From the NCBI GenBank assembly GCA_033664045.1, contig GCA_033664045.1_3674.1: a stretch of 64,000 bases of DNA; one strand, 5' to 3'. This document shows positions 2,973 to 63,400 of this stretch, one piece after another; the stretch's first letter is position 1; every line of letters starts with the position of its first letter. Made by a program: the position numbers and the translations under genes. The notes beneath the pieces are model-generated. The model was not told the DNA's origin. It was given only the letters and a program-made list of their open reading frames with translations, and ran no database searches. This DNA is from a phage.

Positions 2973-3649
2973 TGGCAATAAATAGGAAAGATGCTGCTGT
3001 AAGATCCTTCATAGAAAAAATAATGAGGGACTACCACACCAGTATCAGGGCCAGAGTTGTCAGTGTAGACTACAGTATCCCTTCTGCAGCCGTGCAGCCA
3101 ATAGCTGAAACCACGTTTGATGACGGGGATGTAGAGAGATACCCTCTTATCTATGACGTTCCAATTCAGGTGATGTCTGCAAACAGCGGAAAGGCAAGGT
3201 TAACACTCCCTATTAAGGCTGGAGATGTTGTAGGATTGCAGTTTTCAGAGAGAAATGAAAACAATAACGACGATCAACAAACTCACGGTCTGTTTCCGGG
3301 GTGGGCAATAACCTCTGTTCATTCAGACTCAAACGCTTTACAGATCGATCCTGATAACGTAGAGTTATGGAATGATAGGGTTTATTTTAAACTGACACCT
3401 TCTGGAGATTTTGAGCTTCAAACACCTGGTGGGACACTACGGTGCGACAGCAGCGGGGAGTTTTCTTTCACTAACGGGGCTGCCAATTTGCGAGCTGCTG
3501 TGGATGGAAATATCAGAATGAATGGTGCCACAATAGACCCATCTGGTAGAATTATAACTGCTGCTGGCGTGGATTTGGATTCATTCTATGCAGAATATAA
3601 AGGTCATACCCACTCTTGTCCTGATGGCGAGACAAGTGGACCGCACTAA
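2972..3649 (+). CDS. baseplate central spike-like protein (gpV/gp5-type N-terminal fold suspected)
   Basis: N-terminal region RARVVSVDYS...AGDVVGLQF resembles the P2 gpV-type pattern from memory; His/Cys-containing C-terminus. Confidence 0.4.
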   Translation: MAINRKDAAVRSFIEKIMRDYHTSIRARVVSVDYSIPSAAVQPIAETTFDDGDVERYPLIYDVPIQVMSANSGKARLTLPIKAGDVVGLQFSERNENNNDDQQTHGLFPGWAITSVHSDSNALQIDPDNVELWNDRVYFKLTPSGDFELQTPGGTLRCDSSGEFSFTNGAANLRAAVDGNIRMNGATIDPSGRIITAAGVDLDSFYAEYKGHTHSCPDGETSGPH

Positions 3650-59050: not shown

Positions 59051-59416
59051 ATGGAACAAATGAACGATCAAGCGTCGGTTGCGATGAACGAGCAAGAACA
59101 ACCTCAAGAATTTTTCTTAGGGTTAAGTAAAGATCAAGTGTCTCTTCTGCTAGTGCTTTCTTCTTTCATGGGAAGACTTCAGGAGCTCACACAACAGCCA
59201 GAGGCTGAACAATTATTCCAAGCTTTGCGTGAAGAAGAAAAATATCGTCGTTTGGACTATGCCTTAGGTTGGGTAGCTCAACAACGAGATATGCTAATGG
59301 CCCTCTCTGGGACTACAAGTTTTGCAATGGGCCTGTTGGCTCAAGTTCAGGACAAATTAATTCAAGCAGGGTTTGCACACACGGCAAACACTAACGAAGA
59401 ACAAGGAGATAAATAA
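59051..59416 (+). CDS. hypothetical protein (121 aa)
   Basis: RBS GGAGA. Confidence 0.45.
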   Translation: MEQMNDQASVAMNEQEQPQEFFLGLSKDQVSLLLVLSSFMGRLQELTQQPEAEQLFQALREEEKYRRLDYALGWVAQQRDMLMALSGTTSFAMGLLAQVQDKLIQAGFAHTANTNEEQGDK

Positions 59417-60642
59417 TGAGCGTTATTCAACAATTCGCTAACCCAATGAATCCGCGTGAAACTGTTTTACTGGCTCACGGCATGATTAAACGTGTTAGCA
59501 TCAAGCCTATCAAAGGTGCTGATCCTACAACAGGTATTAAAACCACTGTGTGGCAAGGTAAGAAAATTGAATCCAGCCACACCATCTCTTTACTGATTTC
59601 TGAACTGGATTCCTCTGATAACCTGCTTCAAGGTGGTGAAGAAGTCTGGATCAGCATGGGTGATAAGCTGCTTAAACCAGGTCATCAAGACTCTGTCTCT
59701 GTTAAGATTGATGACAAGTGGGAAACCGTAACGCCAGGATGGATCGTAAATATCCCTTTGAAGGCAAACGAGCATAACGGTAAGACCTATTACAAGGGCT
59801 CACTGGCTAAGATGGTTAAGCTGGGTGCAGGAGAGGCTCCAGCAGCGACTCAGCAGCAAAAACAGCAACAAGGTGCACAATCACAAGGCCAGAAGCAGAA
59901 ACCTCAGCAGAATGCCAATCAGGACGTTTTACGCATCTATGGTGATGTGACTCAGATTGTTGGCAACGTGGTTACTGTTAATGACCACAAGATTGGCGAA
60001 GGTGCTATGGTTGTAACTGATGAGCAGCTTAAAGACCTGGTGGTAGGTGGTCGTGTTGCAGCCATTGTTGACAAAGACACCGGAAACATTATCAGTGGTT
60101 TCAAGGCCTATCCCCCTAAGGCAGAGAACGGCACTCAAGGCTCTGGTGGCAAGCGTAAATCCTCTTACGACCCTATCGGTGTGGAAACGGGGCATAGCAT
60201 CAATGCGTTGCAGATCATCCTGGATCGCGGGTTTAAGGTAGACGACCCGCTGGGCGTGGCTAAAACACTGCACGTAGTCACCATTGAGCTTAAGAAAGAG
60301 TATGCTCAAGCCACCAACCGAACTGAAGATGAAGTAGGTGCCAGTGTCGGTAATGCGGTGTTGAACGCTTGTCGCCGTATTGACAAGAAAACGAAAGTTG
60401 ATGATTTTGCAGCGGCAATTACTGCAGAAGCAAAAGATGTCTTGACTAATCTGGCTGAACCGTTGTACGATTGGATCAAGAACGGTGCTGGGTCAACCGA
60501 CCATCAAGAACCTCAGGCTGCCAAACAGGAAGCAGCTCCACAGCAAAACACTGTAGACGCTCCTCCTGTAAATGATGAGGAAGATGACCCAATGGATCAG
60601 AATCCAGCACAGTACGCCTTTGATGATGACATCCCTTTTTAA
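59416..60642 (+). CDS. ssDNA-binding protein-like with Gln-rich linker and host-SSB-type C-terminal tail (DDDIPF)
   Basis: Protein ends ...AQYAFDDDIPF, identical to the E. coli SSB C-terminal hexapeptide; low-complexity QQQKQQQGAQSQGQKQKPQQ linker; RBS AAGGAGA. Confidence 0.55.
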   Translation: MSVIQQFANPMNPRETVLLAHGMIKRVSIKPIKGADPTTGIKTTVWQGKKIESSHTISLLISELDSSDNLLQGGEEVWISMGDKLLKPGHQDSVSVKIDDKWETVTPGWIVNIPLKANEHNGKTYYKGSLAKMVKLGAGEAPAATQQQKQQQGAQSQGQKQKPQQNANQDVLRIYGDVTQIVGNVVTVNDHKIGEGAMVVTDEQLKDLVVGGRVAAIVDKDTGNIISGFKAYPPKAENGTQGSGGKRKSSYDPIGVETGHSINALQIILDRGFKVDDPLGVAKTLHVVTIELKKEYAQATNRTEDEVGASVGNAVLNACRRIDKKTKVDDFAAAITAEAKDVLTNLAEPLYDWIKNGAGSTDHQEPQAAKQEAAPQQNTVDAPPVNDEEDDPMDQNPAQYAFDDDIPF

Positions 60643-60656
60643 CAATTAGTTAACAT

Positions 60657-60686
60657 AGCCCTGCCCGAAAGGGTGGGGCATTTTTG
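60657..60686 (+). terminator. rho-independent terminator with GAAA tetraloop; exact copy of the hairpin at 49850
   Basis: gccctgcccGAAAgggtggggc followed by atttttg, then an AGGAGA RBS. Confidence 0.7.
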
Positions 60687-60704
60687 TATAAGGAGATCTG
60701 AAAA

Positions 60705-61121
60705 ATGACATTAGAAGATATCATTGTTAAACCTGAGAACTATGACCAATACAACCTGTCAACTCAATCTGTAGACCTCGGATGCGCCACAGTCAGTGCA
60801 TGGCTGGTTAACGGAAAAGAGCTTGACGAGTGCCTGGAAGCACACATGTCGGTGAATAAATTTCTTGATGAAAATACCCACTGGCTAGAGGGTGCAGGAG
60901 TATATGCTTCATGGTTGGAGAGTATGGGATTCGACTACCAATCTGAAGAGGGGTGGTGGAGCTATTTAGCTATCTGCCCAGAGACGCTGCAATGCTTCAT
61001 GAAATATTCTGAAGATTTGGAGTACCGGGCGGTGGTTGATAGTGCCATTGCCCGTTATAGCCGTAAACCTTTTTCCCACGACATTAAAACTGTGGAAGAA
61101 TTTGTTGAAGTTTTCTGTTGA
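60705..61121 (+). CDS. hypothetical protein (138 aa)
   Basis: RBS AAGGAGA. Confidence 0.45.
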   Translation: MTLEDIIVKPENYDQYNLSTQSVDLGCATVSAWLVNGKELDECLEAHMSVNKFLDENTHWLEGAGVYASWLESMGFDYQSEEGWWSYLAICPETLQCFMKYSEDLEYRAVVDSAIARYSRKPFSHDIKTVEEFVEVFC

Positions 61122-61217
61122 CACAGGTTGAAAGGTGTGCAATTATAACTTCATATAACGGGAGGACGCGATGAACGAAGAAAACTGGGATGTATAACTA
61201 ACAGGAGGCCACTGCCC

Positions 61218-61415
61218 ATGATTTATCGAATCCGTGTAAGAGAAGATGCACCAGGCTGTTACTTTGACTGGCGTGGGTGGTGGTTTCTCCACCCAATGGA
61301 TGGACTCACAGATAGAATGCTGGATGCTGCCCTTTATACAGATATCGACATAGAATATAATCTCTATCTGAAGGACGGTATAGATAACGGCCTGTTTGAA
61401 GCAATTCCTGTATAA
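61218..61415 (+). CDS. hypothetical protein (65 aa)
   Basis: RBS CAGGAGG. Confidence 0.4.
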   Translation: MIYRIRVREDAPGCYFDWRGWWFLHPMDGLTDRMLDAALYTDIDIEYNLYLKDGIDNGLFEAIPV

Positions 61416-61483
61416 GAGACTGTGATAGCCATGTTTTATGATCTCCCTGTAGCACCACCCCCTGTTGAACCCGGAGAACTAAG

Positions 61484-61909
61484 ATGATCTATGAAATGCC
61501 AAAACTGATTCGCGACGATGCCCAAAACGCTCACACCATTATTATGGGCAAGCGCATGGATATTATTTGTCATAAAGATTTCTGGGAAGGGAGTTACTTC
61601 ACAGAATATTTTGGTAAACTGGATAATGGTCTGCTGATCCAGTTCTACACCGATGCGGAAAACAACATTCACTGGGAGTTCGAAACTGAAGATATCCATA
61701 AACTTTTCACCTTCCTAGGTATTAAGGTTGAGGCCAAGTTCGAAGAAGGTGAGTGCGACGATTGTGGATTCTACGAGGTAACAGATTTCTATCTCCCAAG
61801 TGGTGAGAACCTTTACTATGAAAGCCACTTCGGCAACTCAAATATGCCACAAGGTTGGGATGAGTTTTTTGAAATTGCGGAAGAGGAGCTGGCATACCGT
61901 GATTATTGA
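61484..61909 (+). CDS. hypothetical acidic protein (141 aa)
   Basis: RBS GGAGAA. Confidence 0.45.
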   Translation: MIYEMPKLIRDDAQNAHTIIMGKRMDIICHKDFWEGSYFTEYFGKLDNGLLIQFYTDAENNIHWEFETEDIHKLFTFLGIKVEAKFEEGECDDCGFYEVTDFYLPSGENLYYESHFGNSNMPQGWDEFFEIAEEELAYRDY

Positions 61910-62357
61910 TACTGTAGAGGGAGATCTAATCTCCATTTTCAAGAAAGGGTCAGGCCACATGATCCACGGTTGTAACTGCTTTCACACAATGGGTGCAGGT
62001 ATAGCGAAAGATATTGCCCGTGAGTTCCCTCAAGCACTGGCAGCCGACAAAGAGACTGCCTATGGTAATCTAGACAAGCTGGGTATGTTTTCTTGTTGGG
62101 AGCATTTTGCCAAGAACAGGGTTGTATATGGGATCAACCTGTATACCCAGTTCTACCCAGGGCCCAATGCTGAATACTTCTCAATCATGAAAGGTTTTGA
62201 GCGAGTCAACGAGGTATTCAAAGGTGTGTCATTGCCGTTCTACATCCCTAAGATCGGGTGCGGCATAGGCGGTTTGAAGTGGGAGCACGTGGAAGATGTC
62301 ATTAATCTTGCAACCACGGATATTGATGTGGTTGTAGTAGAGTACAAAAAGTGTTGA
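61899..62357 (+). CDS. macro-domain-like protein (possible ADP-ribose binding/hydrolase)
   Basis: GTG start after GAGGAG, overlapping the upstream gene by 11 nt; GDLISI...HMIHGCNCFHTMGAGIAKDI and FYIPKIGCGIGGL resemble the macro-domain pattern. Confidence 0.5.
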   Translation: MIIDTVEGDLISIFKKGSGHMIHGCNCFHTMGAGIAKDIAREFPQALAADKETAYGNLDKLGMFSCWEHFAKNRVVYGINLYTQFYPGPNAEYFSIMKGFERVNEVFKGVSLPFYIPKIGCGIGGLKWEHVEDVINLATTDIDVVVVEYKKC

Positions 62358-62382
62358 CGACCATCTTCTGAGGTGATATATT
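62354..62382 (+). promoter_or_regulatory. promoter TTGACG-N17-TATATT with TGn
   Basis: The -35 overlaps the stop of the macro gene; RBS AGGAGA and GTG at 62412 follow. Confidence 0.45.
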
Positions 62383-62411
62383 CTCCACAACGACTAAGAG
62401 AGGAGAGCGCT

Positions 62412-62582
62412 GTGGAGACTAAAATCTTAATTCTTGCTGTGGTAGATACAACCGAAGGAGCTATATTCGAATCTGCAGGAGGGTATTTCTATCTACCATA
62501 CGGAAAAAGAACTTCCGAGCCAAGTAAAGATTCAATCCTCAAAGTGTTCCCGTGTGCTTTCTGGCTGGAGATTTTGGTATAA
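62412..62582 (+). CDS. small hypothetical protein (56 aa)
   Basis: Track ORF trimmed to the GTG at 62412, downstream of the promoter. Confidence 0.3.
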   Translation: METKILILAVVDTTEGAIFESAGGYFYLPYGKRTSEPSKDSILKVFPCAFWLEILV

Positions 62583-62608
62583 GATTGCATAGGATTTGAG
62601 AGAGAATT

Positions 62609-62803
62609 ATGAGAAACAAGAGAGAGCTTTACTCTGGAGAGTGGATAAACGATCAACAGGTTGGAGAGGTAACCTGCTTCCGGTGTTTTACTCGGTACAA
62701 TCTTAAAACTGCACCAAAAAGTGTTCCAAAGACTGATGGTTATTACATAAAAGAACCTCATTGCCCAAAATGTAAATGCCGATTATACTGGAGTAACCTG
62801 TAA
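62609..62803 (+). CDS. zinc-ribbon protein (64 aa)
   Basis: CFRC...CPKCKC Cys pairs. Confidence 0.4.
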   Translation: MRNKRELYSGEWINDQQVGEVTCFRCFTRYNLKTAPKSVPKTDGYYIKEPHCPKCKCRLYWSNL

Positions 62804-62807
62804 AAGA

Positions 62808-62835
62808 TTGACATCTTAAAACTACAGTGTATAAT
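62808..62835 (+). promoter_or_regulatory. near-consensus sigma70 promoter TTGACA-N16-TATAAT
   Basis: Hexamers at 62808-62813 and 62830-62835, about 30 nt upstream of the ATG at 62867. Confidence 0.55.
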
Positions 62836-62866
62836 ATACGCACAGACTAACAGAGAGCGACGTATT

Positions 62867-63058
62867 ATGGTAATTTTTAACCGGGATGGCATCATAGTTA
62901 GACAGCACCCCTTCCTTGAATACTATCAAATTGAGCAATGGTGCTACGGAGATTGCAGTCACTCCTATGGGCAAAGTTGGGGATATCGCACAGTTTTTGA
63001 ATCAACAGACCTTGACAAAGTAAGACAGAAAGTTTTAGAACTTATTAACAACAAGTGA
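62867..63058 (+). CDS. hypothetical protein (63 aa)
   Basis: ORF downstream of the promoter. Confidence 0.4.
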   Translation: MVIFNRDGIIVRQHPFLEYYQIEQWCYGDCSHSYGQSWGYRTVFESTDLDKVRQKVLELINNK

Positions 63059-63067
63059 GTATGACAT

Positions 63068-63400
63068 ATGGTAACATTAGAAAGACGTAAAGCTATCGCC
63101 GCAACACTGGCAGACATCTTTTGGGATTGCAACTTAAAAGATACCCGAAATTGTGGCGCATCTGTAGATGTATTATTCCCACGGCCCACCATTGTTGCAA
63201 TGGGAAACCTGTTAAACGTAGTGTACGGAGCATGGGACAAAGAAGGTGGATTCTATATCTGGCAACCTGACTACGGAGCCTGGAAAGAGGTAAGGGGTGC
63301 GGATGACTTTGGGCCTACAGTTGCTAAGATGGACGGCTGGGAAATTTATGTTGGAAACGACATGAAGCTGAAAGGCGAGATTGTTTACTGGCTACCTTAA
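63068..63400 (+). CDS. hypothetical protein (110 aa)
   Basis: ORF 9 nt after the upstream stop. Confidence 0.45.
   Translation: MVTLERRKAIAATLADIFWDCNLKDTRNCGASVDVLFPRPTIVAMGNLLNVVYGAWDKEGGFYIWQPDYGAWKEVRGADDFGPTVAKMDGWEIYVGNDMKLKGEIVYWLP

Follow-up and report, generated by a model that had tools for sequence, protein, structure and literature searches.

A Gln-type macrodomain gene related to phage T4 tk.4/adfM in a Vequintavirus genome, a candidate countermeasure against DarTG2

The macro-domain gene and its start site

This study concerns a small gene on phage contig GCA_033664045.1_3674.1 (NCBI GenBank assembly GCA_033664045.1), of which a stretch of 64,000 nucleotides was analyzed (hereafter, the window); the gene encodes a macro-domain protein related to Tk.4/AdfM of phage T4. 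Along its whole length, the surrounding region (positions 60700–63100) matched more than 100 genomes of Vequintavirus, the rV5-like myoviruses of Escherichia coli, at 95–97% identity, and its best nucleotide match was phage PDX (96.6%). The macro gene sits in a run of small plus-strand genes lying directly downstream of primase, DNA polymerase, and single-stranded DNA-binding protein (SSB)-like genes, for which the annotated genome of phage JLBYU08 served as a guide. The gene and the features around its start are as follows.

61484–61909, plus strand: upstream gene, 141 aa, phrog_8157 (PHROG E-value 1e−81)
61883–61888, plus strand: Shine-Dalgarno sequence GAGGAG, within the upstream gene, 10 nt 5′ of the macro GTG
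61899–61909, plus strand: 11-nt overlap of the macro gene with the 3′ end of the upstream gene (GTGATTATTGA); the upstream TGA is at 61907–61909
61899–62357, plus strand: macro-domain gene, ortholog of T4 tk.4/adfM; GTG start, 152 aa, 459 nt

An earlier note, made from the sequence alone, had placed an open reading frame (ORF) at 61899–62357, with a GTG start inside the preceding gene and an 11-nt overlap, and the ORF listing and the sequence both confirmed this. The frame is open from position 61800 to the TGA at 62355–62357, and the GTG at 61899–61901 gives 152 codons. The ribosome-binding site (RBS), the GTG, and the overlap recurred unchanged in five further Vequintavirus genomes (Murica, A51.2, JLBYU08, nomine, and SYGMH1), and the GAGGAG at the macro start carries an RBS annotation in Murica. 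The records of four of these genomes list the same 459-nt coding sequence (CDS), as “phosphatase, contains Macro domain” in Murica, as “macro domain protein” in A51.2, and also in JLBYU08 and nomine; across the more than 100 Vequintavirus genomes, its public names are “macro domain protein,” “phosphatase,” or “Tk.4.” Because residue 1 of the window protein pairs with the N-terminus of T4 Tk.4 (VIIDTVEGD and MIVKYIKGD, respectively), we preferred GTG 61899 to the in-frame GTG at 61800 and to the internal ATGs. With a start at GTG 61800, the protein would gain 33 residues that lack any counterpart in homologs, their codons lying within the upstream gene, and an internal ATG, as annotated in SYGMH1, would remove strand 1 and the HGCNC motif.

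The GTG start and the overlap make low, coupled expression of the macro gene plausible, as the earlier note had suggested, and the upstream gene may be translationally coupled to it. The Murica record marks a “terminator” (GGAGAT-CTA-ATCTCC) early in the macro gene, at about 61920–61934. We considered a regulatory hairpin there and rejected it, the predicted fold of positions 61870–61950 being no more stable than that of shuffled sequences (z = +0.67).

Domain and fold

The macro-like motifs noticed earlier were borne out by the profile search that had been proposed for them. The Pfam Macro model (PF01661) matched the window protein at 25.9 bits (E-value 1e−5), above its gathering cut-off of 22, and most homologs carry a precomputed PF01661 match; the protein also matched PHROG 335 (“phosphatase”) with an E-value of 1.7e−59. 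The expected fold was recovered as well. An AlphaFold2 model built on 56 homologs had a mean predicted local distance difference test (pLDDT) score of 94.2 and a predicted template modeling (pTM) score of 0.89, and its six strands alternate with helices in the three-layer α/β/α arrangement of macro domains.

When the model was compared with the PDB by Foldseek, solved macrodomains were retrieved with a probability of 1.00 and template modeling (TM) scores of 0.71–0.75, namely human TARG1, yeast Poa1p, Thermus aquaticus and Mycobacterium tuberculosis (Mtb) DarG, BT1257, and SCO6735. These proteins occupied all of ranks 1–20, with TARG1 at the top, and alphavirus and coronavirus macrodomains scored far lower. 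A search of the PDB sequences with the family profile placed Mtb DarG first (3e−14) and SCO6735 next (1e−13), followed by BT1257 and TARG1. The sole defense-family match in PADLOC was the macro part of DarG (9.6e−13), and DarG also headed the NCBIfam matches (7e−12), where again the macro part alone of the two-domain profile was matched. For Poa1p, the sequence profile aligned with residues 3–85 alone (46–50 bits), and the Foldseek superpositions had TM scores of 0.67–0.73 with a root mean square deviation above 4 Å. The window protein thus belongs to the ALC1-like class of macrodomains (TARG1, DarG, SCO6735, and Poa1p), and not to the MacroD, PARG, or viral Mac1 types.

Relationship to T4 Tk.4/AdfM

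Among phage proteins, the kinship to Tk.4 of T4 was clear. The two sequences aligned over residues 1–150 with 39% identity and 67% positives (E-value 1e−43) and have in common the motifs HGCNCFHTMG.G.A, NLYTQF, and P.IG.GIG; the original rV5 record already names the macro gene “Tk.4 conserved hypothetical protein.” Of 50,697 phage records searched with tblastn, 2,832 contained a homolog, and T4-like phages showed 38–46% identity at the tk.4 gene. In the Vequintavirus phages Bas54 and Bas59 of the BASEL collection, the protein is 98% identical to that of the window. An exhaustive profile search yielded 1,285 representatives of 50%-identity clusters at E ≤ 1e−30 and 8,488 at E ≤ 1e−10. The window gene follows the SSB/replication module and so does not have the vs–tk.4–tk position. 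The closest homolog outside Vequintavirus, in the T4-like Krischvirus Shigella phage JK32 (67.5% amino acid identity; positions 1501–1956 of locus L007), does occupy the tk.4 locus, between vs and tk. On this sequence evidence, we regard the macro gene as the Vequintavirus ortholog of T4 Tk.4/AdfM.

The upstream 141-aa gene likewise occurs in Krischvirus (the RB49 group) at about 35% identity, at a site unlinked to tk.4. As both this gene and the macro gene are common to the two groups of E. coli phages, gene flow between Vequintavirus and Krischvirus is indicated.

The best viral structural match in BFVD was A0A481YV05, a 302-aa “SNF2 subfamily protein” of Marseillevirus LCMAC103 (TM score 0.92, 39% identity). 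The family representative P0133, which combines DUF4326 with a Tk.4-type macrodomain, also has 302 aa. If the two correspond, the Tk.4-type family would extend to eukaryotic giant viruses.

Active site

The predicted key residues of the window protein, and the residues found in characterized macrodomains at the position of Q84, are listed below. The catalytic position was taken from three agreeing alignments (profile–profile alignment with hhalign, hmmsearch, and MAFFT).

Key residues: H23-G24-C25-N26-C27; G32-A33-G34-I35-A36; N80-L81-Y82-T83-Q84; P117-K-I-G120-C-G122-I-G-G125
Q84 counterpart in SCO6735: Gln85
Q84 counterpart in BT1257: Gln
Q84 counterpart in Mtb DarG: catalytic Lys
Q84 counterpart in TARG1: catalytic Lys
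Q84 counterpart in PhiKZ gp104: Lys

Conservation at these positions was high. In 119 full-length homologs, Q84, P117, G120, and G122 were invariant in every sequence, and H23, G24, N26, C27, N80, Y82, and T83 were invariant but for one or two; the NxYTQ pattern was present in 247 of the 258 retrieved family members. The Gly-rich loops predicted to bind ADP-ribose, G32-A-G34-I-A36 and P117-x-I-G120-x-G122-x-G-G125, were also invariant or nearly so.

The pattern resembles that of SCO6735. This protein hydrolyzes the link between ADP-ribose and thymidine in DNA and confers protection from DarT, and its Gln85, which corresponds to Lys84 of TARG1 and Lys80 of DarG, is essential, the Q85A mutation abolishing activity (PMC9411070). 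H23-x-C-N26 of the window protein pairs with H24-V-C-N27 of SCO6735, and N26 also pairs with N23 of PhiKZ gp104. The residue at the position of TARG1 Asp125 is Gly. As judged from these alignments, the Tk.4/AdfM family appears to consist of Gln-type enzymes, like SCO6735. Given the Gln at the catalytic position and the 22% identity to PhiKZ gp104, the Tk.4-type AdfM would form a lineage apart from the Lys-type AdfM of PhiKZ.

Fusions to NADAR and DUF4326

When 10 longer family representatives were scanned for additional domains, four Macro-NADAR fusions (P0144, P0208, P0194, and P0215; loci L011–L013) and two proteins with DUF4326 were found, P0144 having both. The NAYTQ motif and the P.IG.G loop were kept in all four NADAR fusions, and the HGCNC...G.G pattern in three, P0215 giving no match. 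Two of the NADAR fusions are on contigs made up mostly of small Pfam-less genes, and one of these two adjoins a NUDIX gene on a contig that we read as virus-like.

NADAR proteins, including DarG1 and T4 AdfN, reverse the ADP-ribosylation of guanine in DNA, and among the Vequintavirinae of the BASEL collection, NADAR is found in Bas60–62 only (PMC11825919). The fusion of the macrodomain to a hydrolase domain for ADP-ribosylated guanine in DNA gives independent support for the view that this macro lineage acts on ADP-ribosylated DNA bases. These fusions would link the reversal of thymidine ADP-ribosylation with that of guanine ADP-ribosylation.

Divergence within Vequintavirus

The macro ORF was only 80% identical in nucleotide sequence to those of nomine and SYGMH1 (loci L005 and L006), against 90–99% for the flanking genes, and the drop in identity was limited to about 61.9–62.35 kb. 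Synonymous divergence (dS) was about 0.8 in the macro gene and 0.03–0.47 in its neighbors. The ratio of nonsynonymous to synonymous divergence (dN/dS) between the diverged alleles was about 0.15, from which it follows that the macro protein has been maintained by purifying selection. The macro gene is therefore represented by deeply diverged, functionally constrained alleles within a conserved backbone. Since the divergence is sharply bounded within conserved flanks, it suggests allelic replacement by recombination at the macro locus, a pattern typical of anti-defense loci.

Sixteen GenBank records of “Campylobacter phage” with Campylobacter jejuni as the host (e.g., MG065655 “Campylobacter phage C2,” MG065654, and MG065666) were about 96% identical to the region around the macro gene. 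This looks like host mis-assignment or stock contamination.

Predicted function and alternatives

We consider it reasonably probable, though some way from assured, that the macrodomain counters DarT2 of the DarTG2 system as an orphan, antitoxin-like DNA ADP-ribosylglycohydrolase. The idea that a phage macro domain could reverse ADP-ribosylation-based defense had been raised in the earlier note, and there is precedent for it in T4 Tk.4/AdfM (10.1101/2025.11.20.689424) and PhiKZ gp104 (PMC13309987). In T4, tk.4 was the sole gene conditionally required on a DarTG2 host; the phenotype was confirmed with a clean knock-out, and the gene was named adfM (Humolli et al., 10.1101/2025.11.20.689424). We also counted in favor of this function that the window gene closely follows the module with the primase, DNA polymerase, and SSB genes. 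In the proposed sequence of events, the DarTG2 system of the host would release DarT2 upon infection, and DarT2 would ADP-ribosylate thymidines of single-stranded phage DNA, blocking replication. The Gly-rich loops of the phage macrodomain would then bind the ADP-ribose, Gln84, N26, and the H23-G24 backbone would orient the distal ribose and an activated water, as in SCO6735, and cleavage of the bond between thymidine and ribose would restore the DNA. Catalysis would thus probably follow the route of SCO6735, and not the Lys-dependent route of DarG and TARG1.

Several points weigh against this proposal. The window protein lacks both the catalytic Lys found in DarG and TARG1 and the Asp found in TARG1, and the likeness to SCO6735 is itself incomplete: the loop after the Gln is five residues longer in SCO6735 and carries Lys89, which helps in binding DNA, and this insertion, which makes up an extended mobile loop with Lys89/Lys94 in SCO6735-type proteins, is missing here. 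Identity is only 39% to T4 Tk.4 and 22–26% to the characterized DarG, SCO6735, and PhiKZ gp104. The support from T4 Tk.4 comes from one preprint and is a genetic phenotype alone, and the HIDEN-SEQ screens of Vequintavirus Bas54 by Humolli et al. report no DarTG2 test (10.1101/2025.11.20.689424). No DarT neighbor was found beside the bacterial homolog P0059 (Pelagimonas). The homolog P0116 also had no DarT neighbor; its contig, which carries small Pfam-less genes and a DNA polymerase III alpha gene, is read as phage-like. Finally, because SCO6735 and TARG1 act on proteins too, the substrate range cannot be read from the sequence.

This last point leads to an alternative that we consider unlikely overall, in which the protein is a broader or different de-ADP-ribosylase, acting mainly on protein (Glu/Asp-linked) or RNA, against other host ADP-ribosyltransferases or to tune ADP-ribosylation during infection, with DarT2 reversal as one activity at most. 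Such a role fits the rank of TARG1 as the top Foldseek match, and SCO6735, with which the Gln-type site is shared, also de-modifies auto-ADP-ribosylated PARP1 E988Q (PMC9411070). Macrodomains are generally promiscuous, a caveat also made in the Viral AlphaFold Database preprint, and the island of divergence (dS about 0.8 against 0.03–0.47 in the neighbors) is what changing targets would leave. However, the Lys84/Asp125 dyad of TARG1 is missing from the window protein, the sole known phenotype of the family is against DarTG2, and the recurrent fusion to NADAR points to DNA substrates. Moreover, despite its Tk.4, T4 is subject to strong restriction by CmdTAC, a system that ADP-ribosylates mRNA (PMC11618068), which argues against efficient reversal of RNA ADP-ribosylation. 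Less probable still is a metabolic enzyme, an ADP-ribose-1″-phosphate phosphatase like Poa1p or an O-acetyl-ADP-ribose deacetylase that clears by-products derived from NAD, perhaps feeds free ADP-ribose to NAD+ salvage, and has no part in anti-defense. Many records do say “phosphatase,” “Poa1p-like,” or “O-acetyl-ADP-ribose deacetylase,” but such names were passed on automatically from the A1pp/Macro domain and do not come from assays. The HxCNC...GxGIA motif resembles that of Poa1p (46–50 bits, residues 3–85), but the sequence alignment spans the N-terminal half alone. In Vibrio phage River4 (NC_055847, positions 107422–107832), a distant macro homolog adjoins a ribose-phosphate pyrophosphokinase-like gene, which hints at a link between the macrodomain and phage NAD+/ADP-ribose salvage in some phages. 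No RNA-repair or NAD-salvage genes flank the window macro gene, however, as judged by Pfam, PHROG, and the JLBYU08 guide, and the phenotype of the T4 ortholog is defense-specific, the gene being otherwise dispensable (10.1101/2025.11.20.689424).

There is, in our estimation, very little chance that the protein is instead a binder, sponge, or hydrolase of ADP-ribose-derived immune signals (gcADPR or His-ADPR of Thoeris), or a stoichiometric toxin inhibitor that works without catalysis. One fused family member scored weakly on the ThsA_Macro model (26.5 bits). Inhibition without catalysis also has precedent, since catalytically dead SCO6735, DarG, and TARG1 still inhibit DarT by interaction (PMC9411070) and ICP1 AdfB works by binding DarT (PMC11481870). 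Nevertheless, the residues of the catalytic site are strictly invariant across the 119 homologs, which speaks for an enzyme rather than a sponge, and no similarity to known Tad sponges was found, nor anything Thoeris-specific at the locus. There is also a wider reading, which we find conceivable but doubtful. In it, Tk.4-type macrodomains would be a distinct Gln-type, water-activated, SCO6735-like lineage, not Lys-dependent like DarG or the PhiKZ AdfM, within a modular viral toolkit for the de-ADP-ribosylation of DNA bases, as in the fusions to NADAR and DUF4326. Each of the diverged Vequintavirus alleles would suit its own variant of DarT or of another ADP-ribosyltransferase, perhaps by binding the toxin directly as well, and the locus would be one of an arms race and not of housekeeping.

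The basic picture, which published work and GenBank annotations already contain, is unchanged by these results. The macro gene must be regarded as known, as genus records annotate it as a macro domain or Tk.4 and the T4 ortholog has an anti-DarTG2 phenotype in a preprint. What is added here is modest: the placing of the Tk.4/AdfM lineage among Gln-type enzymes, the fusions with NADAR, the link to Krischvirus, and the island of divergence. In practical terms, rV5-like phages are broad-host-range E. coli phages held in therapy and biocontrol collections, and a probable anti-DarTG2 enzyme helps to predict which clinical strains are open to them.

Neighboring genes and signals

No defense-family matches were found among the neighbors of the macro gene with Pfam, PHROG, or PADLOC, the neighbors being phage genes that include one for a zinc-binding protein. 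The upstream 141-aa protein had no Pfam or PADLOC match, and its gene occurs only in Vequintavirus and, as described above, in Krischvirus. We considered this ORF as a functional partner, e.g., a DarT-binding module split from DarG, and rejected it, as it has neither of these matches and does not lie beside tk.4 in Krischvirus. Two further features lie at and beyond the macro stop codon.

62354–62382, plus strand: sigma-70-like promoter, TTGACG-17 nt-TGaTATATT (consensus scan 10/12, plus extended −10 TG)
62412–62582, plus strand: downstream 56-aa gene, phrog_15268; GTG start, GAGGAG RBS at 62400–62405

The earlier note had described the macro gene as directly followed by a promoter-driven micro-ORF. 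The promoter part of that description held, in that there is a conserved promoter-like site at 62354–62382, but the “micro-ORF” proved to be an ordinary conserved 56-aa phage gene. The −35 hexamer shares positions with the macro stop codon, and the promoter would drive the next gene and not the macro gene. Both hexamers and their spacing were kept in SYGMH1 despite a diverged spacer. Around the macro gene, 11 promoter-like sites were counted, against 5.7 ± 2.1 in shuffled sequences. The phrog_15268 match of the downstream gene (E-value 4.7e−42) corresponds to residues 14–69 of a longer reading of the ORF. The gene starts with ATG in SYGMH1, and its 171-nt CDS is annotated in A51.2, JLBYU08, and nomine. 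Nothing was found that links it to the macrodomain. In Murica (positions 3212–3328 of locus L001), it is broken, a register-based comparison giving an in-frame stop and then a loss of register that is probably due to an indel, and is annotated with 38 aa only; the small gene may thus be dispensable in that phage.

Farther downstream, a 64-aa ORF at 62609–62803 encodes a Phage_zn_bind_2 protein (PF23903, E-value 8.4e−23; phrog_4864), and a sigma-70 promoter that fits the consensus at every position (TTGACA, 16 nt, TATAAT; 12/12) lies at 62808–62835, just 5′ of a 63-aa ORF at 62867–63058. On the upstream side, a strong intrinsic-terminator-like hairpin (GCCCTGCCC-GAAA-GGGTGGGGC, followed by a T-run) lies at 60658–60679, directly 3′ of the 408-aa gene at 59416–60642, which is a putative SSB gene by the JLBYU08 annotation. 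The hairpin may end the replication-gene transcript ahead of the cluster of small genes to which the macro gene belongs.

Comparison with known systems

The nearest characterized relative is T4 Tk.4/AdfM. Like the window protein, it is a stand-alone macrodomain of a lytic E. coli myovirus and of similar size (155 aa against 152 aa), and both genes overlap the gene upstream, by 4 nt for T4 tk.4 and by 11 nt for the window gene. They differ in position, T4 tk.4 lying between vs and tk and the window gene, with its GTG start, lying 3′ of the replication/SSB module, and the DarTG2 phenotype is on record for T4 Tk.4 alone.

In the active site, there is a likeness to SCO6735 (PDB 5E3B) and Bacteroides BT1257 (PDB 2FG1/2AFC), which are ALC1-like proteins with Gln at the catalytic position and the H-x-C-N motif. 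Their identity to the window protein is nevertheless only 22–26%, and SCO6735 of Streptomyces coelicolor is a bacterial, chromosomal, DNA-damage-inducible protein and not a viral one. TARG1/OARD1 and Poa1p, the top Foldseek matches (TM scores of about 0.72–0.75), are enzymes of eukaryotes that act on proteins or metabolites. The Lys84/Asp125 dyad of TARG1 is replaced by Gln and Gly in the window protein, and Poa1p has the same N-terminal HxCNC...GxGIA motif, with a sequence likeness limited to the N-terminal half.

DarG of DarTG2 (T. aquaticus and Mtb; PDB 5M31 and 5M3I) has the same fold and the same predicted reaction. In contrast to DarG, the window protein has no C-terminal DarT-binding domain, carries Gln in place of Lys80, and is not encoded beside darT. 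Its assignment as DarG itself was rejected, as it scored 45.2 bits on the DarG model (NF048014) against a cut-off of 250 and matched only positions 3–144 of the 338 in the profile.

PhiKZ gp104, to which the name AdfM was given independently, removes the ADP-ribose placed by DarT2 from a TNTC oligonucleotide in vitro and rescues DarT2 toxicity, and its N23A mutant is impaired (Morgan et al., PMC13309987). Like the window protein, gp104 of the chimalliviruses is a stand-alone phage macrodomain, one that counters DarTG2, and its N23 is kept as N26 in the window protein. Unlike the window protein, it is of the Lys type (FPTK) and DarG2-like, is imported into the phage nucleus, and shares only 22% identity (E-value 9e−5). 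By sequence, the PhiKZ AdfM thus appears to be a separate lineage that shares its name with T4 Tk.4. As Tk.4/AdfM uses Gln and not the Lys of DarG and TARG1, phages would have recruited two unrelated macrodomain lineages, both called AdfM.

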